Of a DNA stretch of 64,000 nt, positions 4,131 through 46,023 are shown in pieces. A program made the translations under genes and the position numbers. This DNA is from Candidatus Nealsonbacteria bacterium (GTDB taxonomy: Bacteria; Patescibacteriota; Minisyncoccia; Minisyncoccales; PWPS01). Each line of letters begins with the position of its first letter. The stretch's first letter is position 1. Location of the stretch: positions 1,369 to 65,368 of the forward strand of contig PUMP01000059.1 in assembly GCA_003551425.1 (NCBI GenBank), given 5' to 3'. The notes under the pieces were generated by a model, which worked only from the letters and a program-made list of their open reading frames with translations, did no database searches and was not told the origin of the DNA.

Positions 4131-4204
4131 TGGACCCGATCGGACTTGAACCGATGGCCTTTTGCGTGCCACGCAAACGCTCTAGCCAGCTGAGCTACGG
4201 GCCC
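4131..4204 (-). tRNA. tRNA-Ala(GGC)
   Basis: Acceptor GGGCCCG/CGGGTCC carries the G3:U70 alanine identity pair. Anticodon loop GTGGCAC. Confidence 0.9.
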
Positions 4205-11925: not shown

Positions 11926-13040
11926 CCTTTAATAGGCATTACCACATAAAGAAAATCACTCTTTCCTACGGGCTTTAAAACACCGGGGCTAGACTCTCCG
12001 CTTATTTCAAATATAACTTCAGAGCTTTTTATATTTAAGAGTCCATCTAAAAGAAAACGATAATTAAAGGAGATATTTGTTTTCTCTCCCTCTGCTCTTC
12101 CTTTTATTTTTGCCTTATAATCACCAAGGTCGGTAGCTTGGCTTTTAATGGTTATCTCTTCTTTCTCCGTATCAACATCCAAATTGACCTCATTAACCTT
12201 TCCACTAAAAACACTTGCTGCTTTGATTTTATTTAAGAATTCATCTTTATCTAATATTATTTGAGATTTAAACTCGGAAGGAATAATACTTTTATAATCA
12301 GGATATTCACCTTCAATTAATTTAGATGTAAGCTCAATATAGGGCTGCTCCGCCTCTCTCATATCAACTTTAAACAAGATTTGGTTATCGCCAAAAACAA
12401 TCTCCATATCTTCATCCAGTTCTTTAAAGATATTAACAACTTCTCTTGCTGTTTTTTGGGGAATAATAAAAGAGAGATTGTTCACTTTGTTTTGTATACC
12501 AATATTCTTCTCTGCTAACCTATAACTATCGGTAGCAACCATTTTTATTCCTTCTTTTGTAAAAATAAGCAGCACGCCCGATATCTCCGGCTTTACTTTG
12601 GAAAGAGAAGGAATGTCGATAATTTGCGATAAACCCTCACAAAAGGATTTACCACTTAATACTACGGAATCTTTTTTTGTTATCTTAGGGATAATAGGAT
12701 ACTCTTTTGCATTAATCCCATTTATCTTTATATTATAATCCTTACACTGAACGGAAAGAACACTTCCTTTTAAATTCATATCCACTCTCTCGTTTGGTAA
12801 TAAATTAATAAAATTGGAAAAAACACCAAAAGGAACCGTAATCTCTCCTTTTTTCTCCACTTTAGCAAGAGTCCACCACTTTACTCCAATCTCTAAGTCG
12901 GTAGAAGAAAGTGATAAAAAATTATCTTCTCCTTTTATTAATATATTTTTTAAAATTGGAAGAGTTGTAGACTTAATGGACGCTCTACTTATAATATTTA
13001 ATCCTTCTTTTAATTTGTTTTGTAATACTTTAATATTCAT
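11922..13040 (-). CDS. dnaN: DNA polymerase III beta sliding clamp
   Basis: 372 aa, directly downstream of dnaA. The N-terminus 'L...L......S.KSTTLPILKNILI' and the three-domain length are typical. Confidence 0.85.
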   Translation of the reverse strand: MNIKVLQNKLKEGLNIISRASIKSTTLPILKNILIKGEDNFLSLSSTDLEIGVKWWTLAKVEKKGEITVPFGVFSNFINLLPNERVDMNLKGSVLSVQCKDYNIKINGINAKEYPIIPKITKKDSVVLSGKSFCEGLSQIIDIPSLSKVKPEISGVLLIFTKEGIKMVATDSYRLAEKNIGIQNKVNNLSFIIPQKTAREVVNIFKELDEDMEIVFGDNQILFKVDMREAEQPYIELTSKLIEGEYPDYKSIIPSEFKSQIILDKDEFLNKIKAASVFSGKVNEVNLDVDTEKEEITIKSQATDLGDYKAKIKGRAEGEKTNISFNYRFLLDGLLNIKSSEVIFEISGESSPGVLKPVGKSDFLYVVMPIKG

Positions 13041-13217
13041 ATTTTATAACTTATTATTAATATTAAATTTGTTAATAACTTATTTTTTGAACTTAAATAG
13101 CGTGGGGAATTGTTTGGGAAAAAATATTAAAAGAAGGGTTTAAAAGATAGGGGATAATTTAAAGAAAAAAATAACGGTTAATTATAAACACTTTTTTCAA
13201 TAACTTTTCCACAACTT
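13041..13217. promoter_or_regulatory. AT-rich dnaA-dnaN spacer with DnaA-box-like sequences
   Basis: TTTTCCACA at 13205..13213 and GGGGATAA (reverse complement TTATCCCC) at about 13150..13158, with long A/T runs. This is an alternative or second oriC segment. Confidence 0.4.
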
Positions 13218-14561
13218 TTACATAGAAGATATTGTTTGCTTGATATATAATATCTCTTCTTTTAATTCCTCGTTATTTTTTATTTCTTCTATTATCTTTT
13301 TATAAGAATACATTACTGTGGTGTGGTCTTTACCGCCTATCTTTTTCCCTATAAAAGGAAAAGAATAATTTAACTCATCTCTCATTAGATAGATAACAAC
13401 TTGTCTTGGCTTTACAATCTCTTTCTTTCTAGAAGATCCCCTTACTTCTTTTTCATTTATATCATAAAAGTCACTTACCACTTTAATTATCTTTTGTGGT
13501 GAAAAAGAGATTGCCGATGATTGGATAATGTTCTTTAAAAGGCTTTTTGTCGTTTCAAGATTAATCTCTTTTTTGTTTATTTTTTGGTGAATAATTAATT
13601 TATTTAAAACACCTTCCAATTCTCTTATGTTTTTTTGTATATTTTCTACTATATAAGAGCAAGCGTCATCGGGGAGATTAAAGTCCTTTTCAAGTGCTTT
13701 TTTCTTAAGAATAGCGGCCCTTGTTTCGGTGTCCGGATAATCTATATCGGTAATCATTCCTCCTTCGAAGCGGGATCTTAATCTGTCGGTAAGAGCGTTA
13801 ATGGATTTAGGCGGCCTGTCGGAAGAAAGTATTATTTGTTTGTTCTTTTCGTATAATTCATTAAAGATATGAAAGAACTCTTCTTGTGTTTTTTCTTTTC
13901 CGGAAAGAAACTGAATATCATCAATAATGATTACATCAATATCCTTGTATTGTTCTTTAAAAGAATCCATTTTTCCGTTTCTAATAGCGGAGACCACTTC
14001 GGAAATGAATTTTTGTGCTTGAATATACAGTATATTCTTATCTTTAATTTTATTTCTTATCTCGTTTCCCGCGGCTTGTAAAAGGTGCGTTTTCCCAAGT
14101 CCTGTTTTCCCGTAGATAAAAAGAGGGTTATAGATATTTCCGGGGCTCTCTGATACGGCAAAACTGGCGGCTTGGGCAAGCTCATTAAAAGGACCAACAA
14201 CAAAATTTTCAAATGTGTATTTCGGGTTTAATCCCGTAACAGAATCTACGGAAAATTCTTGAAACTGCATCTGGTTAATAGCCTCTTTTTCTTCCTTTGG
14301 AGCCTCTTTCTTGATTGGTGCTCTTACAACATAGTCAACTTCTTTTATGTTGGTATTTAACTCTCTTAATGTTTTTAGTATTGTCTTATTGAACTTACTT
14401 TCCAGCCACTCTTTGACAAAAGAATTGGGAACGGCAATAGTTATCTTCGGGTTTTCCAGGGAGTAAATCTGAGTATTTTTAAACCATGTATTAAAGCTTG
14501 CTTCAGAGATATTTAATTGTACTTGAGCTAAAACTGATTGCCAAAGCTTTTCTTTCTCCAT
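13218..14561 (-). CDS. dnaA: Chromosomal replication initiator DnaA
   Basis: AAA+ motifs 'GKTGLGKTHLL' and 'IIIDDIQF', plus a C-terminal DNA-binding domain 'RQVVIYLMR......IGKKIGGKDHTTVMY'. I placed the start at the internal Met (MEKEKLWQ). The upstream 42 codons of the listed ORF cover the DnaA boxes. Confidence 0.9.
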   Translation of the reverse strand: MEKEKLWQSVLAQVQLNISEASFNTWFKNTQIYSLENPKITIAVPNSFVKEWLESKFNKTILKTLRELNTNIKEVDYVVRAPIKKEAPKEEKEAINQMQFQEFSVDSVTGLNPKYTFENFVVGPFNELAQAASFAVSESPGNIYNPLFIYGKTGLGKTHLLQAAGNEIRNKIKDKNILYIQAQKFISEVVSAIRNGKMDSFKEQYKDIDVIIIDDIQFLSGKEKTQEEFFHIFNELYEKNKQIILSSDRPPKSINALTDRLRSRFEGGMITDIDYPDTETRAAILKKKALEKDFNLPDDACSYIVENIQKNIRELEGVLNKLIIHQKINKKEINLETTKSLLKNIIQSSAISFSPQKIIKVVSDFYDINEKEVRGSSRKKEIVKPRQVVIYLMRDELNYSFPFIGKKIGGKDHTTVMYSYKKIIEEIKNNEELKEEILYIKQTISSM

Positions 14562-14619
14562 AGTTGTTTTAAAAATTAAAGTAAATTCAACTGAATGGAT
14601 TATAACATAATTAAAATAG

Positions 14620-14678
14620 TGTGGAAAACTCTTTTTATTTGTTAAAATCTTAATAAGTTGTGGAAAATGTGGGGATAA
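14620..14678. promoter_or_regulatory. Cluster of three DnaA-box-like 9-mers (putative oriC core)
   Basis: TGTGGAAAA at 14620..14628 and 14659..14667, and TGTGGGGATAA at 14668..14678. Their reverse complements are TTTTCCACA x2 and TTATCCCCACA, against the consensus TTATCCACA. They lie between divergent dnaA and rpmH. Confidence 0.55.
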
Positions 14679-14696
14679 GTTAATCAACTGTTAAAA

Positions 14697-14725
14697 TTGA
14701 CTTTTTCTTTTGTTTAAAGTAAAAT
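14697..14725 (+). promoter_or_regulatory. Candidate promoter (TTGACT-17-TAAAAT) for rpmH-rnpA-yidC-jag
   Basis: Hexamers at 14697..14702 and 14720..14725, about 20 nt upstream of the rpmH ATG. Confidence 0.45.
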
Positions 14726-14746
14726 ACAAAAGTAAAATCTTAAATT

Positions 14747-14881
14747 ATGTCATTTTTCAACAACCCTAAAAACAGAAAAAGGAAGAGAGCACACGGCTTT
14801 CTCAGTAGAATTAAGTCAAGGACCGGAAAAGCCGTTGTTAAAAGAAGAATAAGAAAGAGGAGAAACAGTATAACTGTTTAA
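14747..14881 (+). CDS. rpmH: 50S ribosomal protein L34 (44 aa, below the ORF-track cutoff)
   Basis: Hand translation gives MSFFNNPKNRKRKRAHGFLSRIKSRTGKAVVKRRIRKRRNSITV*. The 'KR.R.HGF..R..S..G..V...RR.K.R' pattern and the position before rnpA fit L34. Confidence 0.85.
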   Translation: MSFFNNPKNRKRKRAHGFLSRIKSRTGKAVVKRRIRKRRNSITV

Positions 14882-14884
14882 TTA

Positions 14885-15232
14885 ATGCTTCCTTTTAAAT
14901 ATAGAATAAAGAAAAAGAAAGAGTTTGATGATGTCTTTAGAAGCGGAAAAAGGATTGAAAACCATTTTTATTTAATAAAGATAAAAAAGAATGGCCTGGC
15001 CTTCTCCCGCTTTGCTTTTGTTGTTCCTTTAAGGCTTTCCAAAAAAGCGACAAAAAGGAATAAAATAAAAAGAAGACTGAGAGAGGCTGTGCGCAGCGTT
15101 TTCTATCAAATCGAAAAAGGATTTGATATTATTTTTATCAGCAAAGAGAGAGTAAAAGAAAGCGAGTACAGGGAGATAAAAGAAGGAATTATAGATGTTT
15201 TAAAAAAGGCGGAGATTATAAGAAGCCAATAA
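14885..15232 (+). CDS. rnpA: Ribonuclease P protein component
   Basis: 115 aa basic protein with 'RL.KK.EF..VF..G' and an 'ATKRNKIKRRLRE' RNR-like motif, located after rpmH. Confidence 0.85.
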   Translation: MLPFKYRIKKKKEFDDVFRSGKRIENHFYLIKIKKNGLAFSRFAFVVPLRLSKKATKRNKIKRRLREAVRSVFYQIEKGFDIIFISKERVKESEYREIKEGIIDVLKKAEIIRSQ

Positions 15233-30888: not shown

Positions 30889-32202
30889 TTATAAACGATC
30901 AATTATTGCCTTAGTACTTTCAAGCGAAGTGGAAAATACAATTTTTCTTCCCACTATAGCGTAATAAAATCCTATGCCCTCATGAGGAGACTCTGTGCTT
31001 ATGACGTTATCTTTTTCTATCCATCCCTCCGTGTTATTTACCAGTATACTGTAACGATCTCCTTCTTCTCTTAGTTTCTTGTATTTTTCACCTTCTTCTG
31101 TTCTTCCTGTTTCGATTAAGTTTTGCGCTCCGGAGTATATAGGAGTGTTTCTCATAACGTTAAGAAGTTCTTCTTCCGGTGGAGTGCTGCGGTAACGGAT
31201 AATAATGTTTTCATAAGTAGTGCTATTTAATTCTTCGTCAGTAGTAGGAACCTCTATCTCTAAGAAAGAGAATAGTCTTTGAAAATCTCTTTCAATAGAT
31301 TCCTCCCAAGGCCTCATTAATCCCCAGCTTAAATCTTTGTCTTCATTCGTTTCTACCACGAATCCAAGCCTGCTCTCCTTTTCTTTTGTGTATAAAAGAA
31401 GAGTAAAGTCTTCTTCTATTATATCAAAGAAATCTTGAGGGTGACTGACACGAAAAATTTGAAAGAAATCTTTTAAATTAGAAATACGTGGCTCTTCCTC
31501 TCTTTGGTCTTCTATAATTATACGTACCATTTCTCCTCTTTCCTCTTCTTCTATTGCCTTGCGTAAAAGCATAATATATTCATCATTACTTGTGATCGGA
31601 ATTCTGATAATATCATCTTTTTCTCTGTCTATTCTTATAAGGGAATCGGGGGCACGAGGGGTAATTATCTCTTTTACTTTTTCTACCGGCTCAACTTCCG
31701 GAGGAGAAGTTAAAAATAAGGCTCTGTAAAGAAAAGCAATAGAAAAAATAAAGATAGAAACAATAACCAAGGCCACAAGTAAGCGGACCCATAATTTTGA
31801 TTTTTCAGTAGGTTTCTGCGGGGGTTGCAAGTGTTCTTCTTCTATCTCTTCCTCATCTTCCTCTTCTATATCTTCTTCCTCTGGTGAGGATTCTGAAAGA
31901 GAGGATTCTAACGCTTCGGAAGAAGGGGTCGCAAAGCCACCTTCTTTACTCATTTCTTTCTGCTCAACTCTTTCTAAGAACTTTCTTCTTCTTTCTTCCT
32001 CCTTGTTTATTCTGGCAGAGGATTCTTCTTGTGCATTTTGCTTTATTATTTCATCTAAAATTTGCGAAGGACCTGCTCCCCGATATTCCGCTTTTAGAAA
32101 AAAATCTTCTTTCTCTGGATTTTGTCTTCTTATCTCAGATAAGATCTCTTTGTCGGAAGCCCCTTTTGCTCGGGCTTTTTTAATAGAGCTTACAATGTTC
32201 AT
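30889..32202 (-). CDS. Hypothetical single-pass membrane protein (437 aa)
   Basis: A duplicated N-terminal helix motif ('KGASDKEILSEIRRQN' / 'RGAGPSQILDEIIKQN'), an acidic linker, the TM 'LWVRLLVALVIVSIFIFSIAFLY', and a ~270-aa C-terminal domain. Confidence 0.55.
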   Translation of the reverse strand: MNIVSSIKKARAKGASDKEILSEIRRQNPEKEDFFLKAEYRGAGPSQILDEIIKQNAQEESSARINKEEERRRKFLERVEQKEMSKEGGFATPSSEALESSLSESSPEEEDIEEEDEEEIEEEHLQPPQKPTEKSKLWVRLLVALVIVSIFIFSIAFLYRALFLTSPPEVEPVEKVKEIITPRAPDSLIRIDREKDDIIRIPITSNDEYIMLLRKAIEEEERGEMVRIIIEDQREEEPRISNLKDFFQIFRVSHPQDFFDIIEEDFTLLLYTKEKESRLGFVVETNEDKDLSWGLMRPWEESIERDFQRLFSFLEIEVPTTDEELNSTTYENIIIRYRSTPPEEELLNVMRNTPIYSGAQNLIETGRTEEGEKYKKLREEGDRYSILVNNTEGWIEKDNVISTESPHEGIGFYYAIVGRKIVFSTSLESTKAIIDRL

Positions 32203-32207
32203 GTGTT

Positions 32208-35087
32208 TTAGAACTTAAAATCTAAATCAGAGATGTCCGGAGTTTCTTCCTTTTTCTTTGGAGAAGGGGGAGTCTCTTCTTCCTCCTCTTCCTCTTCTTC
32301 CTCTTCCTCTTCTTCATCTTCCCCCTCCTCTTCAGGCTCTTCTATTTCTTCCTCGCTTTCTTTTGCTTTTTCGTCATTTTCTTCTAATTTTTTTCTGTCC
32401 AGTTCTTCTCTATATTTATCTTCTTCCTCCTCTTCATCTTCTTCCTCCTCTTCTTCTGCCTCTTCCTCTTCTATGTCTTCATCATCATCTAGCACTTCCT
32501 CTTCTTCCGGCTCTTCTTCTGTTATTATCGACTCTTCTTCCTCTTCGCCCTTTACGGACTGCTCCAGCTCTCCTATCTCTTCTCGAAGCTCCGCTTCTCT
32601 TTTTTGAATAAGGTCGAATCCTTGTTTTTCTTTTTCAATTTCCGCCAATCTATTCTCTAACTTCCATATCTCCTTTTCTTTATCGCGCTTTTCTTCTTCT
32701 ACCTCCCATCTTTTTTCTTCTACTTTCTTTTTTTCTCCGGGATCTTCGATGTATTGCTCTTCTTCCTCTATGTCATCCATGCGACTTTTAATTTCTTCTT
32801 TGCTCTTCTTCATCTCTTCAAGAGATTCTTTTATTTGAGTTTCTTCATCAATTAATTTCTCGCTTTTTTCTTCTATTCTGCCCCTAATTGTTTGTACTCT
32901 TTTCAGTTCTTTCTTCTTTTGTTTTGCTTTCTCTGTCTTCTCTATATTTTCCTCTTTTACCGCAAGAGAACTTTCTTTCTTCTTTAACCTTTCTTCTTCG
33001 TTTAGTATTTGCTGGTAATGCAGTTCGGAAGCGTACAATTGTTCTTCAATCTTTTTAACTCTTTTTTGCAAGCCCCACTTTTCTTTTTCAATATCTCTTC
33101 TTTTTTCTTCTATCATCCATCTTTCTTTTTCTTTTTCCCTCCTTTCTTCTGTAGTTTTGGCTGACGATTCCTCTTTCTCAATCTTCTTTTTCCTGTCTTC
33201 TACCTCTTTCTCCCTTTCGAGCGTAATATTTAATTTTTCTTGAAGATGATCTTTCTTCTCTTTCGTTTTAGCTGTCTTTAAATCAAGACCCTTTCTTTCC
33301 TCTTTGATAGAACTTATTTTTTCTTTTATTTTTGCTCTTTCCAGTGAGACTTTTACCCTTTTTTCTTTCTGAGACAACTCTTTCCACCTTTCATGAACTC
33401 TTTTTTCTTTATTGGAGATTCTCCACTTTCTTGTGTGTGTTTGGCGGCTTCTTTTTTTTATTTCATTTAATCTTTCCTTGATGTCCCATATCTTTCTTTT
33501 AGCCTCTCTTATTTCTTCTTCTACCTCCCATCTGTTCTTTTCAATCTCACTTTTTTCCTCCGGGTTGTATGCTATTTTTTCTTTTGACTCGATATCATCC
33601 CTCTTTCTTTCAATATATCTTTCTTCTTTATAAGCTTCTTCTAGCTTTCTTTCGCTCACTTTTTCTTTCTGTGAAAGCTTATCTGCCTCAATCTCTAAGA
33701 GCTTTCTTTCTTCTCGCAAGTCGTAGAATTGGTCACTTAACTTTTCTTTTAATAGTTCTATCTTCTCCAAGTGAAGTTCTTTTTTTTGTACCGAGGAAAG
33801 AGTTTCATCTTGTAAGCCAATAGCGATCTCCCTTTCTTTTCTCTTAATATTTCTTTCTCTTTCTCTTTCTTCTTTTCTTTTTTGCAACTCTTCTTCTTTT
33901 TTTCTTATAAGCTTCTCTTGTTTATTGATTTTCTCTAACCCTTTTTCGGTGTCACTTAGCTCTTTTTCCATGTCCCATCTCTCTTTCTCTATGTTTCTTC
34001 TTTTTTCTTCTATACTCCACCCTCTTTCGGTTAATTCCTTTTCTTCGCCCGTCCCCTTTGCAATGCTCTCCTCTTTTTTAATACTGCTCTTTTTACTCTC
34101 TATCTCTTTTTCTTTCTCTTTTATTTCTTTTAATTTATCTGAAAGCTCTATTCTTCTTGCAAGAAGATTCTCTTTCTCTTCTTTAAGAGATTCTTTTTTT
34201 TCGGTTATTTTTTCTTCGAGATCACCTGCCGGTATTTTTTCTTCTTTCTCTAGAGGAGTCTTTGTTTCTTCCCTTGCTTTTACTTCTCTTATCTCGTCTT
34301 CTTTTTCTTGCAGCTTTTCAATCTCTTCTCCAAGCTCTTCCAATCGATTGGTTGCTTTTTCAATCTTTTCTCTTGCAGCGGCAACCTCTTCTTCTTTTTG
34401 CCACCTTTCTTCTTCTATTTTTTTTCTTTCGTCTTCTATCTTCCACCTTTCCTCCTTAAGTTTCTTTTTTTTGGAAAAGTCTTTTTCTATTTCTTCTTTT
34501 TTTTCCAGGTCTCTTTCTTTTTTTTCAATTGTTTTTTCTTTCTCTTTTATTTCTCTTAGCCTTTCTTTTATTTTTTTCTCCTCGCTAACCAATGATTTTT
34601 TTTCTTTAAGAAGAAGATTCCCTTCCTTTTCTTTCTTCTTTATTTTTTCTTCAATTTGTTCTCCCTCTGTTTCTTTTTGGTCTTTTTGATCTTTTTCAAG
34701 TTTTTGCTCTTCTTCTTTCTTCTTTTTCTTAAGCTCTTCTCTCTCTTGCCTTAAAGAGCTTATTTGTTTTTCTACTTCTTCAACCTTACTTTCCCAGTTC
34801 CAACGCTCTTTTTCGATGTCTTTTCTTTTGTCTTCAACTCTCCATCTTTCTTCGCTTATTTTCTTTTTTTCTTTCTCGTCTTTTGTTTTTTCTCCCTGCT
34901 CTTCTATCTCTTTTTCTTTATCCTCTATCTCTCTTTCTTTTTTGGTTATAAGGTTGAGGCTTTTTTTAATTTGCTCTTTCTTTTCCGTAGCGCTGGCAAT
35001 GTTAACTTCTAGCTCTTCAAGCTTTTTTTCCAGCTCTTTTAATTTATTGTTTTTTTCTTCCAAGTTATTATTGTTTGAATTTATCAT
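32208..35087 (-). CDS. Giant Glu/Lys-rich coiled-coil protein (959 aa) with six W-x13-W motif units and a poly-acidic tail
   Basis: Uninterrupted 959-codon frame, whereas antisense frames are fragmented. The motif 'ERW.[IV]E[ED][KE]R[KR].IEKE[RK]W' occurs at W82/96, 215/229, 357/371, 520/534, 657/671 and 794/808. Confidence 0.7.
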   Translation of the reverse strand: MINSNNNNLEEKNNKLKELEKKLEELEVNIASATEKKEQIKKSLNLITKKEREIEDKEKEIEEQGEKTKDEKEKKKISEERWRVEDKRKDIEKERWNWESKVEEVEKQISSLRQEREELKKKKKEEEQKLEKDQKDQKETEGEQIEEKIKKKEKEGNLLLKEKKSLVSEEKKIKERLREIKEKEKTIEKKERDLEKKEEIEKDFSKKKKLKEERWKIEDERKKIEEERWQKEEEVAAAREKIEKATNRLEELGEEIEKLQEKEDEIREVKAREETKTPLEKEEKIPAGDLEEKITEKKESLKEEKENLLARRIELSDKLKEIKEKEKEIESKKSSIKKEESIAKGTGEEKELTERGWSIEEKRRNIEKERWDMEKELSDTEKGLEKINKQEKLIRKKEEELQKRKEERERERNIKRKEREIAIGLQDETLSSVQKKELHLEKIELLKEKLSDQFYDLREERKLLEIEADKLSQKEKVSERKLEEAYKEERYIERKRDDIESKEKIAYNPEEKSEIEKNRWEVEEEIREAKRKIWDIKERLNEIKKRSRQTHTRKWRISNKEKRVHERWKELSQKEKRVKVSLERAKIKEKISSIKEERKGLDLKTAKTKEKKDHLQEKLNITLEREKEVEDRKKKIEKEESSAKTTEERREKEKERWMIEEKRRDIEKEKWGLQKRVKKIEEQLYASELHYQQILNEEERLKKKESSLAVKEENIEKTEKAKQKKKELKRVQTIRGRIEEKSEKLIDEETQIKESLEEMKKSKEEIKSRMDDIEEEEQYIEDPGEKKKVEEKRWEVEEEKRDKEKEIWKLENRLAEIEKEKQGFDLIQKREAELREEIGELEQSVKGEEEEESIITEEEPEEEEVLDDDEDIEEEEAEEEEEEDEEEEEDKYREELDRKKLEENDEKAKESEEEIEEPEEEGEDEEEEEEEEEEEEEETPPSPKKKEETPDISDLDFKF

Positions 35088-35099
35088 GAGCCAAAAACC

Positions 35100-37358
35100 T
35101 TAAGAAATTACTTTTTGAAGTTCGTTTGTTATTTTTTTTGCAATTTCCGCAAACCTTTCTTCAAGAACTTCACTGTCTTTCTCTTTCTCCATCATTGTTT
35201 CTGTCTTCTTTTTTTCTTTCTCCAGAGAGATTAACTGTTCCTTGTCTTTAAAGCTTTCTTTCTCTTTGCTTAATTTATCTTCTTCTTCCGATATTTGCTT
35301 GTACTGTGATTCTATTTTTTTCTGAAGGTTTTCCATTTCTCTTATCTTTTCCTGGAGCTTCCATTTTAAGCTCTCTATTTCTCTTCTCTTGTCTTCTAGC
35401 TGCCATCTCTTCTTTGTCTCATCCTTTCTTTCTTTTGAGTTAATATCCATTGTCTCTATTTTATCTTCCATCCATCTTATTTGTTCTTCAACCTCGCTCT
35501 CATTTTTCATTATATCTCTTAATTTTTCTTCACTTTCTTTCTTCCTCTCTTGTAGTTGCCTTTTTTTCTTATCAAGAATTTCTCTTTTTTTCTTAAGCTC
35601 TTCTTCCCTTTCTCTTATCTTCTCCCTTCTTCCCTCCATCTCCATCCACTCCAAAAGCTTAGAGGCAAGATCTTTTTCTTTATCGTGCATATTTTCTTTT
35701 TCTTCCATCAATCTATCATATCTTTTCTCCATCTCTTTCCTTTCTTTTGTAACATTGTTTAATTTTTCTTGGATGTCCAAAGATTCTTTTTCCACGGCTC
35801 TTCTTTTTTCTCCTATTTCCCACCTTTTCTTTTCCATCTCTCTTACTTCTTGAGGGTCCTTTGCTGTTCTTTCTCTTTCTTCGATATCTTCTTTCTCTTT
35901 CTTCATCTGTTTTTCTTTTTCATAAACTTCGTTGAGCTCTCCTTTGATCTCTCTTTCTTTTTCCAAGGGAGCCTTTAAATCTCTCTTAATCTCTTTCTTT
36001 TTTTCTATCGTCTCACAGATAGCGCCTAAAAGATCTATTCTGTTTATGACTATCTGTTTTCTGTATCGGGGGTCTCTTAAAAGAAACTCTTTTCTTTTAA
36101 GGGAAATGAAGCGCTTTTTCTCTTCAATCTGCTCTTTCTCTTTTGCTCTTTTTTCCTTTTCTTTGTTTAGGGCATCTTCTGCGGCGGTGGTTCTTTCTTG
36201 AAAAGCTTTTTCATTTTGCCGTATCTCTTTTTTAAGTGACTCTATTTTTTCTTTTAGAGAAGTACTTTTGCCTTCAATTATCTTTATTTTCTCTTTTGTT
36301 TTTTTAATTTTTTCCTGCCACTCCCAAGCCTCTTCTTTGACTTGTTTCTTTTTCTCTTCGATCCTCCATCTTTCACTTTCAAGTTCCTCTAGCTCTTTGC
36401 TATCCTCTGTTTTCCCCGTTCTTTCTTTTATGTCTAAAAATCTTTCCTTTATGTTTTTATCTACTTGGATAATTTTCTTTAACTTGTCTTTTGCTCTTTT
36501 TTCACGAGCTTGAAGCAGTCCTATTATTTGTTCGTAAAAATTATTTTTCTTTTCTAGAAATCTTATTTTGCTTTGAGGTATGAGGATAGAAAGCTTAAGA
36601 CCCAAAGCCTCTCTTTCCACCTTTATTATCTCGGCTTTTCTCTTTGCTCTTTCTTCTTTTATATCACAAAGGAGTTGCCTTAACTCAAGAGATTGTATTC
36701 CTTTTTTAATTTGAATTATTTTTTCTTCTATTTCCCAGCTTATTCTACTCGCTTCTCTTTCTTTTCTGCTTATCTCTTCTTCTTTTCTTTCAAGGTCTTC
36801 CTGTCTTTCAGGGCTTTGTGCCGCCACTTTCATCTCTTTTATCTTTTCTTTTTGCGTCTTTATCTTTGTTTCCTTTGATTTTACAACGCCTTTTTTCTCT
36901 TCCAGCTTTATAATGTTCTTTTTTGCAAAGTTATTCTTTAGCTCGAGAGATTTTCTTTCTTTTAACACCTCTTCCAGTAGCTGGTTGTTTCTTTCTTGCT
37001 CTTGTCTTTTTTCTTCAATTTTTCTTTTGGTTGCTTCTATTTTATCCTTTACGGACTCTTTTATCCCTTGTCTTGTTTTTTCAATATTTTTTATCCACTC
37101 TTCTTTTTCTTCCTTTTCAATCTTTCTTATTTTATTTTCTTCCTCCAGTCTTGCTTGCCTTTTTTCTTCCTCTTTTCTTTTTTCTTCTTCTCTTATTATT
37201 TCTTCTTCTTTCTTTTTGTCTTCTTCACTTTTCTTTTGCGTTCCTTTCTGCGGGGGTTTGGATTGTTGAGCCACGTCTTTTTTTCCTCCTGTCTTGGCAA
37301 GTAAAAGGTCCTTTTTCATCGTCCTAATCTCTTGTGTGGTGTCTTTATTTTCTTCCAT
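35100..37358 (-). CDS. Giant Glu/Lys-rich coiled-coil protein (752 aa), paralog of the downstream gene
   Basis: The same motif occurs: 'SERWRIEEKKKQVKEEAW' (W331/345) and 'KKRWQLEDKRREIESLKW' (W652/666), with degenerate copies at W208 and W513. There is no TM or signal peptide. Confidence 0.7.
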   Translation of the reverse strand: MEENKDTTQEIRTMKKDLLLAKTGGKKDVAQQSKPPQKGTQKKSEEDKKKEEEIIREEEKRKEEEKRQARLEEENKIRKIEKEEKEEWIKNIEKTRQGIKESVKDKIEATKRKIEEKRQEQERNNQLLEEVLKERKSLELKNNFAKKNIIKLEEKKGVVKSKETKIKTQKEKIKEMKVAAQSPERQEDLERKEEEISRKEREASRISWEIEEKIIQIKKGIQSLELRQLLCDIKEERAKRKAEIIKVEREALGLKLSILIPQSKIRFLEKKNNFYEQIIGLLQAREKRAKDKLKKIIQVDKNIKERFLDIKERTGKTEDSKELEELESERWRIEEKKKQVKEEAWEWQEKIKKTKEKIKIIEGKSTSLKEKIESLKKEIRQNEKAFQERTTAAEDALNKEKEKRAKEKEQIEEKKRFISLKRKEFLLRDPRYRKQIVINRIDLLGAICETIEKKKEIKRDLKAPLEKEREIKGELNEVYEKEKQMKKEKEDIEERERTAKDPQEVREMEKKRWEIGEKRRAVEKESLDIQEKLNNVTKERKEMEKRYDRLMEEKENMHDKEKDLASKLLEWMEMEGRREKIREREEELKKKREILDKKKRQLQERKKESEEKLRDIMKNESEVEEQIRWMEDKIETMDINSKERKDETKKRWQLEDKRREIESLKWKLQEKIREMENLQKKIESQYKQISEEEDKLSKEKESFKDKEQLISLEKEKKKTETMMEKEKDSEVLEERFAEIAKKITNELQKVIS

Positions 37359-37366
37359 GGAAAGAA

Positions 37367-39460
37367 TTATTTTTTATCTTCTTTTGCTTTTTTAATGGAA
37401 AGGCTTATTTTCCCACTTTCTTCTTTTTTGATTACTTTAACGGGGACTACTTGTCCTTTTTCAAGTTCGCTTTCTACTGATTCTATTCGGTGTGGAGCAA
37501 TTTCTGAGATGTGGCAAAGCCCTTCGTGTCCGGGGAGAATCTCGATTACAGCACCGAAATCAAATATTTTAATCACCTTTCCTTTGAAGACTTCTCCTTC
37601 CTTGACTTCTCGGGTGAGATCTTTGATTCGAGAAACAGCTTTTTCAATAGCTTCTTCGTTTTCTGAGGTTATGGAGATGAGGCCGGAGTCTTCGATATCA
37701 ATGGCAACGCCCGTTTCTTCCATGATCTCGTTTATCGTTTTTCCCTTGGGTCCAATTATGACACCTATTTTCTCTGAATCAACCTTAATGGTCGCGATGC
37801 GGGGAGCGTAAGGGGAAAGTTCTTCTCTCGGCTCTTTGATGGTCTTTCCCATTTCTTCCAGAAGATAAAGACGAGTCTCTTTGCCTCTTTCTAAGGCCTC
37901 TTTAATCATCTCTTTTGTAATGCCTTCTATTTTTACGTCCATCTGAATAGCCGTTACGCCGTCTTTTGTTCCCGCTACTTTAAAATCCATGTCTCCGTAG
38001 TGATCTTCGGGACCTTGAATATCGGTAAGTATTTTGTACTCTCCTTCTTCATTTGAAACAAGACCGATAGAGATTCCCGCCACGGGCTTTTTAATGGGAA
38101 CTCCGGCGTCCATAAGGGCAAGAACGGTGCTACACACGGAAGCCATGGAAGTGGATCCGTTAGAAGAGAGTATCTCCGAAACGGAACGTATAGTGTAGGG
38201 AAACTCTTCTATATCGGGGATAAGAGGAAGAATCGCTTTTTCCGCAAGCATGCCATGGCCGATATCTCTTCTTCCCGGTCCACGAACGGGCTTTACTTCT
38301 CCTACCGAGTAGGGAGGGAAGTTATAGTGATGCATAAAGCGTTTTTTCCCGGAAAGCTCCATCTCTTCGATTAGTTGCTGCTCTCCCGGAGCTCCTAGGG
38401 TTATAATGGAAAGTGACCTGGTTTTTCCTCTTCTAAAGATTCCCGAGCCGTGAGTACGGGGAAGAATAGCAACGGCGGTGCCTATCTCTCGCACCTCGTT
38501 CATTTTTCTTGCATCGGGACGATCTTCTTCTTTTAATATCTTCTCTCTTATTATTTCTTCTATCTTTTCGTCCATATAGGAGAGGGCGTAATCTTTTTCT
38601 TTGTCCTCGTAATTTTCTTTTATAAAAAGGGAGAGGTCTTTTTTAAGGGATTTTATTTTATCTCCTCTTCCTTCTTTCTTCGCAAAGACATCGCTCATTC
38701 CTTCCTTAACTTTTTCCGCGACCACTTTCTTTACTTCTTCGTCTTGGAAAAGAGGGGGAGGCATAATCTTTTCTTTACCTTTTTCTTTCCTTATTTTCTC
38801 TTGAAAAGAGCAGATCTGTTTTATTGGATCTTCTGCAAACTGAAAAGCATCTTCTATCGCTTTTTCTTCTGTCTCTTCAAAGAAACCCTCTATCATATTG
38901 GTTATGAGAACTCCTTCTTTATTGATAAAGCCACTTATTATTATATCTATCTCTCCTTCGTCTCTTTCCAAGTAAGTGGGATTTAAGATGTGATTTTCTT
39001 TTTTACCCACTCTTATCGATCCAAGGGGTCCGTTCCAGGGAATATCGGATACTTCGAGAGCAACGGAAGCAGCGATCATTCCCAAAACACCCGGATCGTT
39101 TTCTTCATCCCAAGAAAGGCAAGTTACAATTACTTGTACTTCTTTCTTTAGTTCTTTGGGAAACTTGGGGCGAATAGCACGATCGATCATGCGAGAGATT
39201 AAAGTTGCTCTGTCGGAAGGCTTTCCCTCTCTTCTTGTATAGCGAGGACCGCTTATCTTCCCGGCGGCGTAAAATTTTTCCTCGTAGCTTACCGAAAGCG
39301 GAAAGAAATCTTTTTCCGTGTCTTCTTCGGCAAGAGTTACGGTGGCGAAGACGACCGTATCTCCGTAACGGACCATAGCCTCACCGTTTGCTTGTTCTGC
39401 TAAGCTGCTTAAAGAGATAATCAAATTACGATTTCCCAGTGGTAGATTGTATTCATTCAT
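37367..39460 (-). CDS. pnp: Polyribonucleotide nucleotidyltransferase (PNPase)
   Basis: 697 aa with two RNase PH domains, a KH domain ('IGPKGKTINEI') and an S1 domain ('GEVFKGKVIKIFDFGAVIEILPG.EGLCHISE'). Confidence 0.95.
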   Translation of the reverse strand: MNEYNLPLGNRNLIISLSSLAEQANGEAMVRYGDTVVFATVTLAEEDTEKDFFPLSVSYEEKFYAAGKISGPRYTRREGKPSDRATLISRMIDRAIRPKFPKELKKEVQVIVTCLSWDEENDPGVLGMIAASVALEVSDIPWNGPLGSIRVGKKENHILNPTYLERDEGEIDIIISGFINKEGVLITNMIEGFFEETEEKAIEDAFQFAEDPIKQICSFQEKIRKEKGKEKIMPPPLFQDEEVKKVVAEKVKEGMSDVFAKKEGRGDKIKSLKKDLSLFIKENYEDKEKDYALSYMDEKIEEIIREKILKEEDRPDARKMNEVREIGTAVAILPRTHGSGIFRRGKTRSLSIITLGAPGEQQLIEEMELSGKKRFMHHYNFPPYSVGEVKPVRGPGRRDIGHGMLAEKAILPLIPDIEEFPYTIRSVSEILSSNGSTSMASVCSTVLALMDAGVPIKKPVAGISIGLVSNEEGEYKILTDIQGPEDHYGDMDFKVAGTKDGVTAIQMDVKIEGITKEMIKEALERGKETRLYLLEEMGKTIKEPREELSPYAPRIATIKVDSEKIGVIIGPKGKTINEIMEETGVAIDIEDSGLISITSENEEAIEKAVSRIKDLTREVKEGEVFKGKVIKIFDFGAVIEILPGHEGLCHISEIAPHRIESVESELEKGQVVPVKVIKKEESGKISLSIKKAKEDKK

Positions 39461-43061: not shown

Positions 43062-43089
43062 TTGATATAATTGTAAGTTATAATAGAAT
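43062..43089 (+). promoter_or_regulatory. Candidate promoter (TTGATA-16-TAGAAT)
   Basis: Hexamers at 43062..43067 and 43084..43089, 10 nt upstream of the ATG of the Ntn-hydrolase gene. This implies a very short leader. Confidence 0.4.
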
Positions 43090-43098
43090 TAAGCAAGT

Positions 43099-44034
43099 AT
43101 GTCTCTAGTAATAAATGCGACAATTCCGGAAGGCATCATTTTGGCCGCGGACAGCAGGCAGTCTTTTCGTAATCGCAAAGGAATGGCTCGCATCGGTTCC
43201 GATAACGCTTCGAAGATTTTTCAAATTAATAGCAAAGTGGGTGTTGGCGTTACCGGACTTGCTTTTTTGCCGGAAGACGGAGTAATGAAGAATATCAGTA
43301 AATTCATTGATGTTTTTAAGCATAAAACGGAGACAGAAGATATGACCGTACAAGAGATCGCTGAAAAGCTGCACTTTCTTTTCAGTAAAAAATATGATTA
43401 TAAGAGGCAACTAAGAAGAATAACGGAAAAAGTGGAGAATGATCTTAAAAGACAAGGGGCTGAAATCATAGAGAAAAAAGAGAATGAAGAATTTACAATA
43501 ATTCGTTTTAAAGACGCCGAGGAGAGAGAAAAAGAGACCAGGGTCGGAGTTGATATGATAAAACTTATGGTCTCCGGGTATAACAGTGACGGAAACCATG
43601 AAGTTTATACCTGCCATATTCCGGGCAAAGTTCAAAAAGTAAGAGATGGAAATGAAAAAGGGAAAGAGTATGGGTCTTCGTGGATAGGGCAAACAGATGT
43701 GGTTTCAAGAATTGTTTTAGGTTTTGACGGTAGAGTCGGTAACCTTGATTTTGTAAGTAAAGCGGTACAAGAGAAAGGCAAAGAAGAGATCAATAAACAA
43801 CTAAGAAATTTAGAGTATGTTATCCAGTGGGGGACGATGACAGTGCAAGATGCGGTTGATTTTTGTGTTCTTATGGTTCAGAGTACTTCTGCTATTCAAC
43901 GGTTCTCAGACGGAATAAAGGGCGATCCGGGAGATATGCCCGGTGTCGGAGGGCCCGTTGACGTGGCTGTTATTACCCCGGAGAAAGGATTTGTTTGGGT
44001 AAAAAGAAAAAAGATAAACGTTGAAGAGGACTAA
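43099..44034 (+). CDS. Proteasome-beta/HslV-like Ntn-hydrolase-fold protein with a charged insertion (311 aa)
   Basis: The N-terminus 'M-SLVINATIPEGIILAADSR.....ASKIFQIN.KVGVGVTGLA' lines up with the beta-subunit pattern (nucleophile at mature residue 1, acidic residue in 'LAAD', Lys in 'K[LI]FQI'). 'LMVSGYNSDGNHEVY' resembles the 'GG.D..GP.LY' segment. Confidence 0.45.
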   Translation: MSLVINATIPEGIILAADSRQSFRNRKGMARIGSDNASKIFQINSKVGVGVTGLAFLPEDGVMKNISKFIDVFKHKTETEDMTVQEIAEKLHFLFSKKYDYKRQLRRITEKVENDLKRQGAEIIEKKENEEFTIIRFKDAEEREKETRVGVDMIKLMVSGYNSDGNHEVYTCHIPGKVQKVRDGNEKGKEYGSSWIGQTDVVSRIVLGFDGRVGNLDFVSKAVQEKGKEEINKQLRNLEYVIQWGTMTVQDAVDFCVLMVQSTSAIQRFSDGIKGDPGDMPGVGGPVDVAVITPEKGFVWVKRKKINVEED

Positions 44035-44039
44035 GAAGG

Positions 44040-44115
44040 CGGGCCGTGGTGTAACGGCTAACATGCACGATTCGGGTTCGTGTGATTCCGGGTTCGAATC
44101 CCGGCGGCCCGACCA
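44040..44115 (+). tRNA. tRNA-Pro(CGG), CCA encoded
   Basis: Acceptor CGGGCCG/CGGCCCG, anticodon stem CACGA/TCGTG with loop TTCGGGT, T-arm CCGGG-TTCGAAT-CCCGG. Confidence 0.9.
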
Positions 44116-44119
44116 CGAT

Positions 44120-44194
44120 GGGCCCATAGCTCAGACAGGCTAGAGCGCTTGCTTCGCATGCAAGAGGTCGCCGGTTCGATTCCGGCTGGGTCCA
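44120..44194 (+). tRNA. tRNA-Ala(CGC)
   Basis: Acceptor GGGCCCA/TGGGTCC with G3:U70, anticodon stem CTTGC/GCAAG with loop TTCGCAT. Confidence 0.9.
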
Positions 44195-44201
44195 CTTTCA
44201 T

Positions 44202-44229
44202 TTGACAAAGAGAAATATTTTGTTACAAT
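44202..44229 (+). promoter_or_regulatory. Near-consensus promoter (TTGACA-16-TACAAT) for nusA
   Basis: Exact -35 at 44202..44207 and -10 at 44224..44229. A ~65-nt leader follows, containing a hairpin and a 9-nt direct repeat. Confidence 0.5.
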
Positions 44230-44300
44230 ACAAAGCAGTTGAGAAGTTTTGTATTGTCCGTTGAGAAGCGGACAATATTTGTTAATAAAAAGATTAATTC

Positions 44301-45432: not shown

Positions 45433-46023
45433 ATGAATCTTATACCAACAGTAGTAGAAAAAACTCAATACGGCGAAAGAGCCTACGATATTTATTCCAG
45501 GCTGTTAAAGGAGCGTATTATCTTTTTAGGATCACCTATTAACGATAACGTTACAAACTCCATTATTGCCCAGATACTCTTTTTGGCCAGCCAAAGCTCG
45601 CAGAAAGACATTCGCCTTTATATCAACACTCCCGGAGGATCGGTAACGGCAGGAATGGCGATATATGACACTATGCAGTATGTAAAATGTGATGTTTCCA
45701 CCGTTTGTGTAGGAATGGCCGGATCAATGGGGGCAGTACTTCTTGCCGGTGGAGCGGAAGGAAAACGTTTTGCTCTTCCCAATTCCGAAATTCTTTTGCA
45801 TCAAGTAATGGGAGGAGCCAGCGGAGCGGCAGCGGAGATTGAGATTACAGCCAAGCAAATCTTAAAGATTAGAGAGAAACTAAACAAGATATTGGCAAAT
45901 CACACAAAGCAGCCTATTGCAAAGATTCGTAAAGACACGGACAGAGATTTTTATCTTACCCCCGAAGAGGCAAAAGATTACGGCGTAATTGATGCAATGA
46001 TCACGGAGAAAAGAAAAGTGTAA
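45433..46023 (+). CDS. clpP: ATP-dependent Clp protease proteolytic subunit
   Basis: '[19 protein letters not shown]', the catalytic '[11 protein letters not shown]' (Ser) and 'LHQ' (His). Confidence 0.95.

Follow-up and report, generated by a model that had tools for sequence, protein, structure and literature searches.

A predicted N-terminal-serine hydrolase of the proteasome-beta branch, with multiple insertions, in a Candidatus Nealsonbacteria genome

The stretch of Candidatus Nealsonbacteria DNA analyzed here (64 kb, hereafter the window) carries on its forward strand a gene for a 311-aa protein that an earlier, sequence-only reading had taken for an orphan proteasome-beta/HslV-like Ntn hydrolase. 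The open reading frame was recovered from the ORF list with letters identical to those quoted previously, and an upstream extension is ruled out because an in-frame stop precedes the ATG at 43099, which is the first start codon after that stop. No Shine-Dalgarno sequence was found before this ATG, and a promoter-like site ends 9 nt from it, a pattern match that together with the missing ribosome-binding motif tentatively suggests a leaderless or near-leaderless transcript. The gene and its features are located in the window as follows.

43062..43089, forward strand: promoter-like site TTGATA-16-TAGAAT, scoring 10/12 in a consensus scan, with 9 nt between its end and the ATG.
43099..44034, forward strand: CDS (stop codon included) for the 311-aa proteasome-beta-like Ntn hydrolase of PMI type (proteasome homologs with multiple insertions), from the ORF list, PF00227, hhalign, AlphaFold and Foldseek.
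43102..43104, forward strand: codon 2 (TCT), Ser2, the predicted N-terminal nucleophile after Met1 excision, aligned with Thr1 of mature beta subunits.
43150..43152, forward strand: codon 18, Asp18, which corresponds to Asp/Glu17 of the proteasome by HMM-versus-PDB search and hhalign.
43159..43200, forward strand: beta-hairpin between Asp18 and Lys39 (residues 21-34) that carries a 5-residue insertion, modelled with strands at 21-24 and 30-34.
43213..43215, forward strand: codon 39, Lys39, which corresponds to Lys33 of the proteasome by the same two methods.
43255..43257, forward strand: codon 53, Gly53, matching the oxyanion-hole Gly47, again by both methods.
43396..43554, forward strand: the "charged insertion" after helix H2 (residues 100-152), a predicted folded module without a 20S beta counterpart in hhalign.
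43720..43836, forward strand: second large insertion, helical, between H3 and H4 (residues ~208-246), unaligned to beta subunits in hhalign.
43906..43944, forward strand: extra active-site loop (residues 270-282, SDGIKGDPGDMPG) at the site of proteasome Asp166...Ser169, an 11-residue insertion in hhalign.

Profile and structure searches agreed on the fold. The Pfam check that had been proposed for this protein returned PF00227 above its gathering score (25.7 versus 22.4 bits), over residues 10-55 only. A family HMM built from 56 diverse members and compared with PDB sequences matched mature yeast beta1 (1fnt_H, E=4e-7) in a register that places position 2 on Thr1, Asp18 on Asp17, Lys39 on Lys33 (with a 5-residue gap) and Gly53 on Gly47, and hhalign against the T. 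acidophilum beta subunit (reference checked against 1pma_B) covered the entire subunit, with 190 columns, a probability of 96.9% and E=1.5e-10. The Ser2/Asp18/Lys39 correspondence, reproduced independently by the two methods, is not spurious, and hhalign also puts the later segments where they had been laid by eye, with "LMVSGYN..HEVY" on beta strands S6/S7 and "TMTVQDAVDF..." on helix H4. AlphaFold model 2 reached a pLDDT of 96.0 and a pTM of 0.92 (pLDDT 95.4-96.0 over five models), and the top 50 Foldseek matches of this model in the PDB were all 20S beta subunits, yeast beta5 and the archaeal beta subunit foremost, with a best E of 7.7e-8 and a target-normalised TM of up to 0.72; a search with model 1 agreed. 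The Ntn-hydrolase fold is thus found by PF00227, hhalign and AlphaFold with Foldseek alike, and sequence profiles and predicted structure together confirm that the protein belongs to the proteasome-beta branch of the Ntn hydrolases, with a predicted alpha-beta-beta-alpha sandwich. In the model, helices H1 and H2 are kept (residues 66-76 and 84-98), and the C-terminal end, which has no helix, consists of strands 288-293 and 297-302 followed by a short tail.

Conservation within the family, together with the two alignments, upholds the proposed assignment of Asp18 and Lys39 and supports Ser2 as the predicted nucleophile. Met-Ser opens every one of the 120 close homologs, and among the 56 diverse members position 2 is Ser or Thr without exception, the Asp18 column holds D in 53 and E in three, and the Lys39 and Gly53 columns hold K and G, respectively, in 55. 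The Ser/Thr lies exactly 16 residues N-terminal of the catalytic Asp in 113 of 116 diverse representatives; Met1 alone precedes it in 86, and the rest have signal-peptide-like AxA|T or Gly(-1)|Thr junctions, of which the latter, present in some relatives, resemble beta-subunit propeptides. In the protein studied here, a mature-type N-terminus follows directly after Met1, in line with the claim that a propeptide is absent, and Met excision would therefore be the sole processing needed. We infer that Met1 is removed and, from the retained residues, that the protein is catalytically active. Further active-site positions of the proteasome are without conservation in the hhalign register, in which Ser129 and Ser169 correspond to Ile196 and Val283, and Asp166 falls on Phe269 unless its place is taken by Asp271 from the inserted loop.

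Relative to 20S beta subunits, the family has four insertions of its own that amount to about 100 extra residues. The hairpin between Asp18 and Lys39 forms part of the most conserved stretch of the protein (residues 21-38, mean column identity 0.96 in the close family). The charged insertion, previously estimated at about 55 aa, is real, with about 53 residues after H2, but it is not the mere interruption of the fold that it was taken for: it is predicted to be an ordered module in which one helix (101-118) is followed by three beta-strands (122-128, 132-138 and 144-150), with block-mean pLDDT of 96-98 in model 2. This module contains 14 K/R and 15 D/E, shows column identities of 0.73-0.74, and has a constant length throughout the insertion-bearing subfamily; it is missing from relatives of about 265 aa, and the net gain over these short relatives within the family is about 36-40 residues. 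A disordered charged linker is ruled out by the fixed length, the beta-strand periodicity (VKFRFKD) and block-mean pLDDT above 95. The other two insertions had been overlooked: one, of about 35-45 residues, separates H3 from H4, and the other lies in the Asp166 loop. Helices 211-215, 217-226 and 228-238 make up the former in the model, and it occurs in 56/56 family members at a length of 34-49 residues. In the latter, the close family shows no variation at S270, D271 and G272, and the loop is followed by Gly284-Gly285, equivalent to Gly170-Gly171, with G284 invariant and G285 in 54 of the 56 diverse members.

This architecture matches a group that has been described computationally as proteasome homologs with multiple insertions, or PMI (Fuchs, Alva & Lupas 2021, Bioinformatics 37:4694; PMC8665760). 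Both have no propeptide, retain Ser/Thr1, Asp17, Lys33 and Gly47, and are without an AAA+ partner, PMI proteins having been reported to lack one and to have an uninformative gene context (PMC8665760), as is the case here. The protein is matched to the group by architecture and distribution as described, not by sequence, and the subfamily is most likely PMI-3, set by description. PMI-3 is defined by a long insertion that follows H1/H2 together with another that separates H3 from H4, two sites that PMI-4 shares (PMC8665760). The protein has insertions at these same two sites, and the published PMI-3 range ("other bacteria", Euryarchaeota and some Proteobacteria-labelled MAGs) and low diversity (28 nr90 reducing to 11 nr70 sequences; PMC8665760, Table 1) resemble the range and very high within-family identity found here; comparison by description found no contradicting feature. 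The representatives given are OGZ26396.1 for PMI-3 and HDY66466.1 for PMI-4, and the family representative came from a groundwater CPR genome (PMC8665760). The sequence-only reading of the gene is correct, yet the family had already been catalogued in 2021 and is not new. What is added to the account of Fuchs et al. is a high-confidence model of the post-H2 insertion as an ordered module, the 113/116 register statistic at the N-terminus, a CPR-centered tree with its transfers, and a recurrent neighbor with a LexA N-terminal domain (LexA-NTD). A literature search for work on PMI proteins after that publication found no follow-up and no biochemical data.

At identities of 50-77%, family members were found in CPR/Patescibacteria, Atribacterota, Caldisericota, Omnitrophota and Methanobacterium, and some sit in MAGs labelled as delta- or gammaproteobacterial. 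The best 120 matches are all at least 64% identical, and mean column identity is 79% in the close family. Such identities over scattered phyla imply horizontal transfer, and the family tree is centered on CPR and shows transfers to Methanobacterium, twice to Atribacterota, and to Caldisericota. A phage origin was rejected: IMG/VR contained no relatives, the sole PHROG match was a 26-residue C-terminal motif, and the phage proteasome-like proteins in BFVD are all short (173-219 aa). A link to defense systems was likewise rejected, the sole PADLOC match being LmuA at noise level (E=0.0036).

Within the window, no second proteasome-like gene was found (next-best match E=0.014, 6.7 bits), nor any ATPase of ClpX, HslU, Mpa, Lon or FtsH type, and the earlier statement that no alpha subunit, HslU or Mpa/ARC-type ATPase gene is nearby holds over the full 64 kb. 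The ORFs with a Walker-A motif encode a T2SSE ATPase, RuvB, DnaA, a TraG-like protein and a 163-aa product (4182-4673), the last of which was set aside on length alone, as it is below the size of an HslU-type unfoldase. ClpX was considered for the ORF at 4712-6013 with its "GPTGSGKT" motif and rejected, this being the T2SSE/PilB ATPase. A clpP gene does lie 1.4 kb downstream (45433..46023), as had been noticed; ClpP was rejected as a functional partner since the adjacency occurs only in this lineage and is not kept in other genomes. Across 83 family loci we found no conserved neighbor gene, metabolic genes included. The best candidate for a general operon partner, a LexA-NTD protein, was rejected because it occurs in only about 14 of the 83 loci and is missing from this window, which contains no LexA-NTD-type regulator. 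In 11 loci, a LexA_DNA_bind-type protein without the S24 peptidase domain is encoded directly upstream on the same strand, its stop codon overlapping or nearly abutting the start codon of the Ntn hydrolase. Further loci contribute one or two weaker HMM matches to this protein, and two more have an unrelated-looking wHTH+TM protein (c122) upstream; together these loci are spread over no fewer than five distinct clades in the family tree. Moranbacteria-type loci are among those that have both the LexA-NTD gene and the Ntn hydrolase. Upstream genes are unrelated in about 65 of 80 loci.

Compared with the 20S beta subunits of T. acidophilum (PsmB) and yeast (beta5), the protein shares full-length homology, fold, nucleophile position, Asp, Lys and oxyanion Gly, whereas it has Ser in place of Thr, neither propeptide nor autolysis, and no alpha subunit in the window. 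HslV forms such as B. subtilis CodW provide a precedent for the Ser nucleophile. HslV itself is compact, at about 175 aa, and has HslU as its partner; the 43099 protein resembles HslV (ClpQ) in baring its nucleophile by Met1 removal alone and differs in its 311 aa, its four insertions and the absence of HslU from the window. Judged by profile comparison, the family is far more like 20S beta than like HslV, against which hhalign gave a probability of 5.8% over 91 N-terminal columns only. Of the label "Anbu/BPH/HslV-like" that had been given to the protein, the orphan proteasome-beta-type Ntn fold therefore stands, while the likeness to HslV (5.8% versus 96.9%) is limited to the lack of a propeptide. 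Anbu and BPH are, similarly, proteasome homologs of bacteria for which no ATPase partner is known, and Anbu (5nyw) ranked 12th among structural matches in the model 1 search; unlike the 43099 protein, both are without PMI insertions. The long C-terminal helix H5 with which Anbu forms a coiled coil with the opposing subunit (PMC8665760) is missing from our model, and the insertions would probably obstruct a ring or helical assembly of the kind that Anbu and BPH form. Connectase, an archaeal proteasome-like protein ligase, offers a different comparison, being stand-alone, with an N-terminal nucleophile, no propeptide and extra elements by the active site to which it owes its specificity. It has lost H1/H2 and gained a two-helix S3/S4 lid (PMC8665760), whereas the 43099 protein keeps H1/H2 in the model and has just the short hairpin (21-24, 30-34) in the matching region. 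By analogy, connectase might serve as a model of how the protein could work.

On balance, we consider the protein to be probably a catalytically competent, ATP-independent N-terminal-serine peptidase of the PMI group (most likely PMI-3) that stands alone and forms no canonical barrel. In the proposed mechanism, methionine aminopeptidase would take off Met1, leaving Ser2 as the new N-terminus, and the Ser2 hydroxyl would attack the peptide (amide) bond. Proton shuttling would fall to Lys39 and the free alpha-amine, with Asp18 positioning Lys39, and the backbone NH of Gly53 would stabilize the oxyanion; neither propeptide autolysis nor a dedicated ATPase would take part. In 20S proteasomes, the post-H2 site faces the lumen (the "pore-loop" site) and H3/H4 mediate the main contacts between the beta rings (PMC8665760). 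Two of the four insertions are placed at these sites, the helix/three-strand module behind H2 and the helical one between H3 and H4, and since both sites are important for 20S assembly, a canonical double-ring barrel is not expected. The insertion positions in the model, along with the argument of Fuchs et al., point to a monomer or a non-canonical oligomer, in which the insertions would shape a selective substrate site.

The alternative that survives best, possible although unlikely, is a homo-oligomeric ring protease that, in the manner of HslV, BPH or Anbu, would be self-compartmentalizing, with the post-H2 module as a gate or cap over the pore, and would degrade unfolded or disordered proteins without a dedicated ATPase or by way of a housekeeping unfoldase encoded elsewhere. 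All characterized proteasome homologs except connectase form rings, and Fuchs et al. considered that insertions might swing outward and cap a ring as a regulatory element (PMC8665760). The cross-phylum conservation reflected in the 79% mean column identity would suit the many subunit interfaces of an obligate large homo-oligomer, and general proteolysis machinery is present, ClpP being retained by the genome. However, the 53-residue module at the lumen site and the roughly 40-residue H3/H4 insertion are predicted to clash with canonical assembly, the model lacks the C-terminal H5/coiled-coil helix that stabilizes the double layers of Anbu and the 20S proteasome, and the window encodes no partner ATPase.

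We regard as improbable a connectase-like, sequence-specific processing protease or transpeptidase whose original target may be the upstream LexA-NTD-type wHTH regulator, a repressor without a peptidase domain of its own that the Ntn hydrolase would cut in trans. The direct upstream position of that gene in 11 loci, and the spread of these and the weaker or c122-bearing loci over at least five clades, would fit such a role, as would the near-invariant hairpin (21-34) beside the active site, which with the insertions suggests a selective cleft; connectase itself shows that a proteasome homolog can be monomeric and highly specific. Against this, the regulator is missing from the present window and upstream genes are unrelated at most loci, the wHTH gene may be a plain operon regulator, and the connectase hallmarks (H1/H2 loss and the two-helix S3/S4 lid) are missing from the model. 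Less probable again is a "split LexA" switch, in which the proteasome-fold Ntn hydrolase would not be a bulk protease and would supply the cleavage that LexA performs on itself, with the upstream regulator, translationally coupled to it in several clades within CPR and beyond, as its ancestral partner; the lineage of the window would have lost or relocated this gene.

We give still less credence to the idea that the protein, instead of being a peptidase, is an Ntn amidohydrolase whose substrate, as with numerous Ntn hydrolases, is a non-protein amide, for example a small molecule or a compound related to the cell wall. The Ntn superfamily does include acylases and amidotransferases (PMC8665760), the protein retains neither Ser129 nor Ser169 in the alignment register, the 11-residue insertion reshapes the active-site loop, and secreted, signal-peptide-bearing relatives exist in the wider family. 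Nonetheless, the specific, full-length kinship is with catalytic 20S beta subunits, and no metabolic gene context is conserved. All characterized members of the 20S beta branch known to us act on polypeptides. Finally, a catalytically dead scaffold, like proteasome alpha or inactive beta subunits, is scarcely credible: Ser129 and Ser169 are indeed missing in the alignment register, but inactive proteasome subunits lose the nucleophile, Asp, Lys and oxyanion Gly, which are almost invariant here in more than 100 diverse sequences, with Ser/Thr kept exactly at the mature N-terminus via three processing routes.

To our knowledge, proteasome homologs beyond the 20S proteasome, HslV, Anbu, BPH and connectase have never been examined experimentally. 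The PMI-type family is strongly conserved over CPR bacteria, Atribacterota, Caldisericota and Methanobacterium, and since one carrier, Methanobacterium ferruginis NBRC 105197, is cultured, laboratory study of the family is possible. If the protein were a specific protease or a ligase like connectase, it could serve as a tool, and if it formed a new kind of assembly, this would widen the known architectures of the proteasome family. The presence of the family in very small genomes suggests a role that is hard to dispense with.

The ORF at 43099..44034 (plus strand) codes for a 311-aa protein, the same as that quoted in an earlier sequence-only reading, and because ATG 43099 is the earliest possible start downstream of an in-frame stop, the hydrolase has no N-terminal extension and no propeptide. 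Pfam Proteasome (PF00227), which that reading had proposed as a check, exceeded its gathering score (25.7 vs. 22.4 bits), though over residues 10-55 only; the NCBIfam archaeal beta-subunit model matched weakly, far under its cut-off, and a search of PDB chains with the single sequence returned nothing significant. Taken alone, the sequence is thus a borderline match, and the earlier hand alignment of Ser2, Asp18, and Lys39 with the beta-subunit N-terminus needed an independent test. Within 43062-43101, 9 nt separate the end of a promoter-like TTGATA-16-TAGAAT from the ATG, and the stretch shows no Shine-Dalgarno sequence; the transcript may have little or no leader.

That alignment was borne out by two profile comparisons. 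A profile of 56 diverse family members (A2), run against PDB sequences, matched mature yeast beta1 and archaeal beta subunits (E=4e-7 to 1e-5), aligning residue 2 with Thr1, Asp18 with Asp17, Gly53 with Gly47, and, across a 5-residue gap, Lys39 with Lys33. Comparison by hhalign with the Thermoplasma acidophilum beta subunit, whose reference sequence was identical in extent to 1pma_B (E=1.5e-133), gave 96.9% probability (E=1.5e-10) over 190 columns and the whole chain. Each of the 120 close homologs carried Ser immediately behind Met1 and had Asp as residue 18; in the diverse set of 56, position 2 was Ser in 26 and Thr in 30, position 18 was always D or E, and 55 sequences kept Lys39, as 55 did Gly53. 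Conservation of these positions supports function, with activity being predicted.

The hydrolase had 1,199 matches in a collection of 5.8 billion proteins, the best 120 of which were all 64-100% identical, and an exhaustive search of 50%-identity representatives gave 896 clusters at E<=0.001, including many relatives of ~265 aa that are without the insertion after helix H2. Judged from these searches, the family is large and very well conserved. In 113 of 116 representatives with a recognisable Asp-Ser/Thr-Arg motif, a Ser/Thr lies exactly 16 residues before the Asp, a fixed spacing that would be most simply explained by an N-terminal nucleophile. This residue directly follows Met1 in 86 cases; elsewhere it follows a typical signal peptide with a small final residue, such as ...ALA/T or ...ANA/T (family representatives P0157, P0160, P0163, P0174, P0222, P0227, P0245, P0251, P0256, and P0265), or a Gly(-1)/Thr junction resembling the autolytic site of beta-subunit propeptides (P0166, P0172, P0184, P0187, P0200, P0204, P0212, P0234, and P0250). 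Some members of the wider family appear to be secreted, with signal-peptidase cleavage expected to leave Thr1 exposed, and others have long N-terminal extensions ending in Gly(-1)/Thr1, like beta-subunit propeptides; propeptides have been described as limited, among proteasome homologs, to 20S beta and HslV (PMC8665760).

Structure prediction, also suggested earlier, returned a proteasome-beta fold. An AlphaFold model from a shallow alignment had moderate confidence (pLDDT 80) and matched beta, alpha, and Anbu chains in Foldseek, while a diverse alignment gave five agreeing models (pLDDT 96.0, pTM 0.92), for which the top 50 Foldseek matches in the PDB were all 20S beta, led by yeast beta5 and archaeal beta (best E 7.7e-8; TM up to 0.72 normalised to target). 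Relative to 20S beta, the alignments, hhalign, and the model place four additions in the chain:

(a) between Asp18 and Lys39: hairpin lengthened by five residues (strands 21-24 and 30-34)
(b) residues ~100-152: insertion after helix H2
(c) between H3 and H4, about 208-246: insertion of ~35-45 residues, mostly helical
(d) at the site of proteasome Asp166...Ser169: 11-residue loop SDGIKGDPGDM, preceding invariant Gly284-Gly285 (proteasome Gly170-Gly171)

Addition (b) had been read as a highly charged insertion interrupting the fold. Its existence and charge stand (14 K/R and 15 D/E within 53 residues), but it is more than an interruption, being predicted to be a folded module with a helix (101-118) and three strands (122-128, 132-138, and 144-150) at block-mean pLDDT 96-98 in the diverse-alignment model. 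Its length is constant throughout the subfamily and it has strand-like periodicity (VKFRFKD); on these grounds and the pLDDT, a disordered linker was rejected. Set against the short relatives within the family, it adds a net length of about 36-40 residues. In the hhalign alignment, Ser129, Asp166, and Ser169 of the proteasome fall on Ile196, Phe269, and Val283, and the invariant Ser270-Asp271-Gly272 of loop (d) may replace these proteasome residues.

Among known homologs, 20S beta is much closer than HslV (hhalign probability 96.9% vs. 5.8%, with single-sequence templates), so the HslV-likeness proposed earlier does not hold at the profile level. The model lacks the defining C-terminal helix of Anbu and the defining traits of connectase (H1/H2 loss and S3/S4 lid). 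Sequence searches and modelling by Fuchs, Alva & Lupas (2021) yielded 22 new proteasome-homolog families, among them "proteasome homologs with multiple insertions" (PMI), which have no propeptide and for which the authors found no function, informative context, or AAA+ partner (PMC8665760). A long insertion after H1/H2 occurs in PMI-3 and PMI-4, and an H3/H4 insertion in PMI-2 to PMI-6; PMI-3, represented by OGZ26396.1, covers Proteobacteria, "other bacteria", and Euryarchaeota with 28 sequences at 90% identity and 11 at 70%, and PMI-4 comprises 411 clusters at 70% from all phyla and phages (PMC8665760). Compared by published description, the hydrolase very probably belongs to the PMI group. 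Its architecture, distribution, and unusually low diversity all fit PMI-3, with the larger and broader PMI-4 a poorer fit, and this description-level comparison makes PMI-3 the probable assignment. The accession prefix of OGZ26396.1 is presumably that of the 2016 groundwater CPR genomes. No later experimental work on PMI proteins was found in the literature.

The gene content of the window is of CPR/Patescibacteria type. The hydrolase gene neighbours a CCA-adding enzyme, a divergent gene for a 161-aa protein that is hydrophobic in an N-terminal segment and unmatched in Pfam, two tRNA genes with which it may be co-transcribed, and NusA, ClpP, two further tRNAs, and RNase Y. Features located in the window are:

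4182-4673: 163-aa Walker-A ORF, taken to be TsaE-like
4712-6013: T2SSE/PilB-type secretion ATPase (E=3e-122)
13218-14687, minus strand: dnaA
16377-18194: TraG/VirB4-like P-loop protein
32208-35087, minus strand: large ORF (959 aa)
35100-37358, minus strand: large ORF (752 aa)
44040-44278: stretch with tRNA-Pro(CGG), beginning 6 nt past the hydrolase stop codon, then tRNA-Ala(CGC), and the two sites below
44202-44229: strong promoter-like site in the nusA leader (11/12 matches, extended TG)
44251-44278: terminator-like hairpin, also in the nusA leader (possible attenuator)

Pilus or DNA-transfer machinery of the T2SSE and TraG kind is typical of CPR genomes. G+C falls to 0.30-0.35 at 12000-15200 near dnaA, which may be a replication origin region. 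Skew is extreme at 32000-38000 (GC skew -0.42 to -0.48, AT skew -0.54 to -0.59), where the two large ORFs probably encode low-complexity or repetitive proteins.

No second proteasome-like ORF was found across the 64-kb window (next-best E=0.014). Its Walker-A proteins are the T2SSE/PilB-type ATPase, RuvB, DnaA, the TraG-like protein, and the 163-aa ORF, with no ClpX, HslU, Mpa/ARC, Lon, or FtsH, in agreement with the earlier remark that no alpha subunit or partner ATPase lies nearby. The closest homolog (77% identity), in a Candidatus Nealsonbacteria MAG (L005), is the sole syntenic locus, and across 83 loci of other genomes no neighbour was universally conserved and ClpP was not recurrent. 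With a single proteasome-like gene, no unfoldase ATPase, and no conserved neighbour, "orphan" is an accurate label.

Eleven loci (L002/L074, L006, L007, L009, L021, L056, L059, L062, L064, and L070) have, immediately upstream and on the same strand, a gene for a winged-helix protein of the LexA N-terminal type (Pfam LexA_DNA_bind; 111-336 aa) that has no S24 peptidase domain; its stop codon overlaps, or lies close to (<=17 nt), the start codon of the hydrolase gene. HMM matches are weaker in one or two further loci (L069 and L066), and in two possible additional loci (L071 and L073) the upstream gene encodes a wHTH+TM protein from another cluster (c122); in the family tree, loci with upstream wHTH genes are spread over at least five clades. 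The LexA-type protein may do no more than regulate the operon. Alternatively, the hydrolase might cleave it in trans as a substrate, a speculative reading given that the LexA-type gene is absent from the 64-kb window.

Among GTDB species representatives, the family occurs at 50-77% identity in numerous CPR lineages (Nealson-, Doudna-, Moran-, Magasanik-, Berkel-, and Zambryskibacteria, WWE3, and CPR2), in Atribacterota, Caldisericota, and Omnitrophota, and, among archaea, in Methanobacterium, where the cultured M. ferruginis NBRC 105197 carries it in a complete genome. MAG labels of Pseudomonadales, Bdellovibrionales, and Heimdallarchaeota are probably unreliable. CPR sequences dominate a neighbour-joining tree and enclose a single Methanobacterium clade (L038-L053), suggesting bacterium-to-archaeon transfer; Caldisericota fall in one clade, and Atribacterota in two (L022-L035 vs. 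L039-L063), suggesting two acquisitions. The two Atribacterota clades differ in neighbours: one has a TPR membrane protein upstream, the other small membrane proteins. Together, these placements indicate several horizontal transfers, one into archaea. Methanobacterium also has a true 20S proteasome, for which the hydrolase is therefore unlikely to be a substitute. No relatives were found in IMG/VR viral contigs, and a viral structure library held only short phage proteasome-like proteins.

From established knowledge of Ntn hydrolases and methionine aminopeptidase, with a residue as small as Ser in penultimate position, Met1 would be cleaved off, making Ser2 the N-terminal nucleophile; Lys39, oriented by Asp18, would act as base together with the free alpha-amine, and the Gly53 NH would provide the oxyanion hole. 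In the 20S particle, the site of insertion (b) is a lumen-facing pore loop, and H3 and H4, which flank insertion (c), make the main beta-ring/beta-ring contacts (PMC8665760). Since insertions (b) and (c) fall at these sites, a monomer or non-canonical assembly is favoured over the main rival, a ring protease with the insertion as a cap; both stand-alone or non-canonical and capped-ring possibilities were raised by Fuchs et al. (PMC8665760). In the favoured monomeric or non-canonical form, the insertions would build a selective substrate site and no ATP would be used. The sequence-only interpretation was essentially right overall and its observation is confirmed, with the hydrolase being one more member of a family that had been catalogued before but never characterised, and no new kind of system. 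Its interest is moderate, and lies in the family's conservation, its spread across domains, and its presence in a cultured methanogen.
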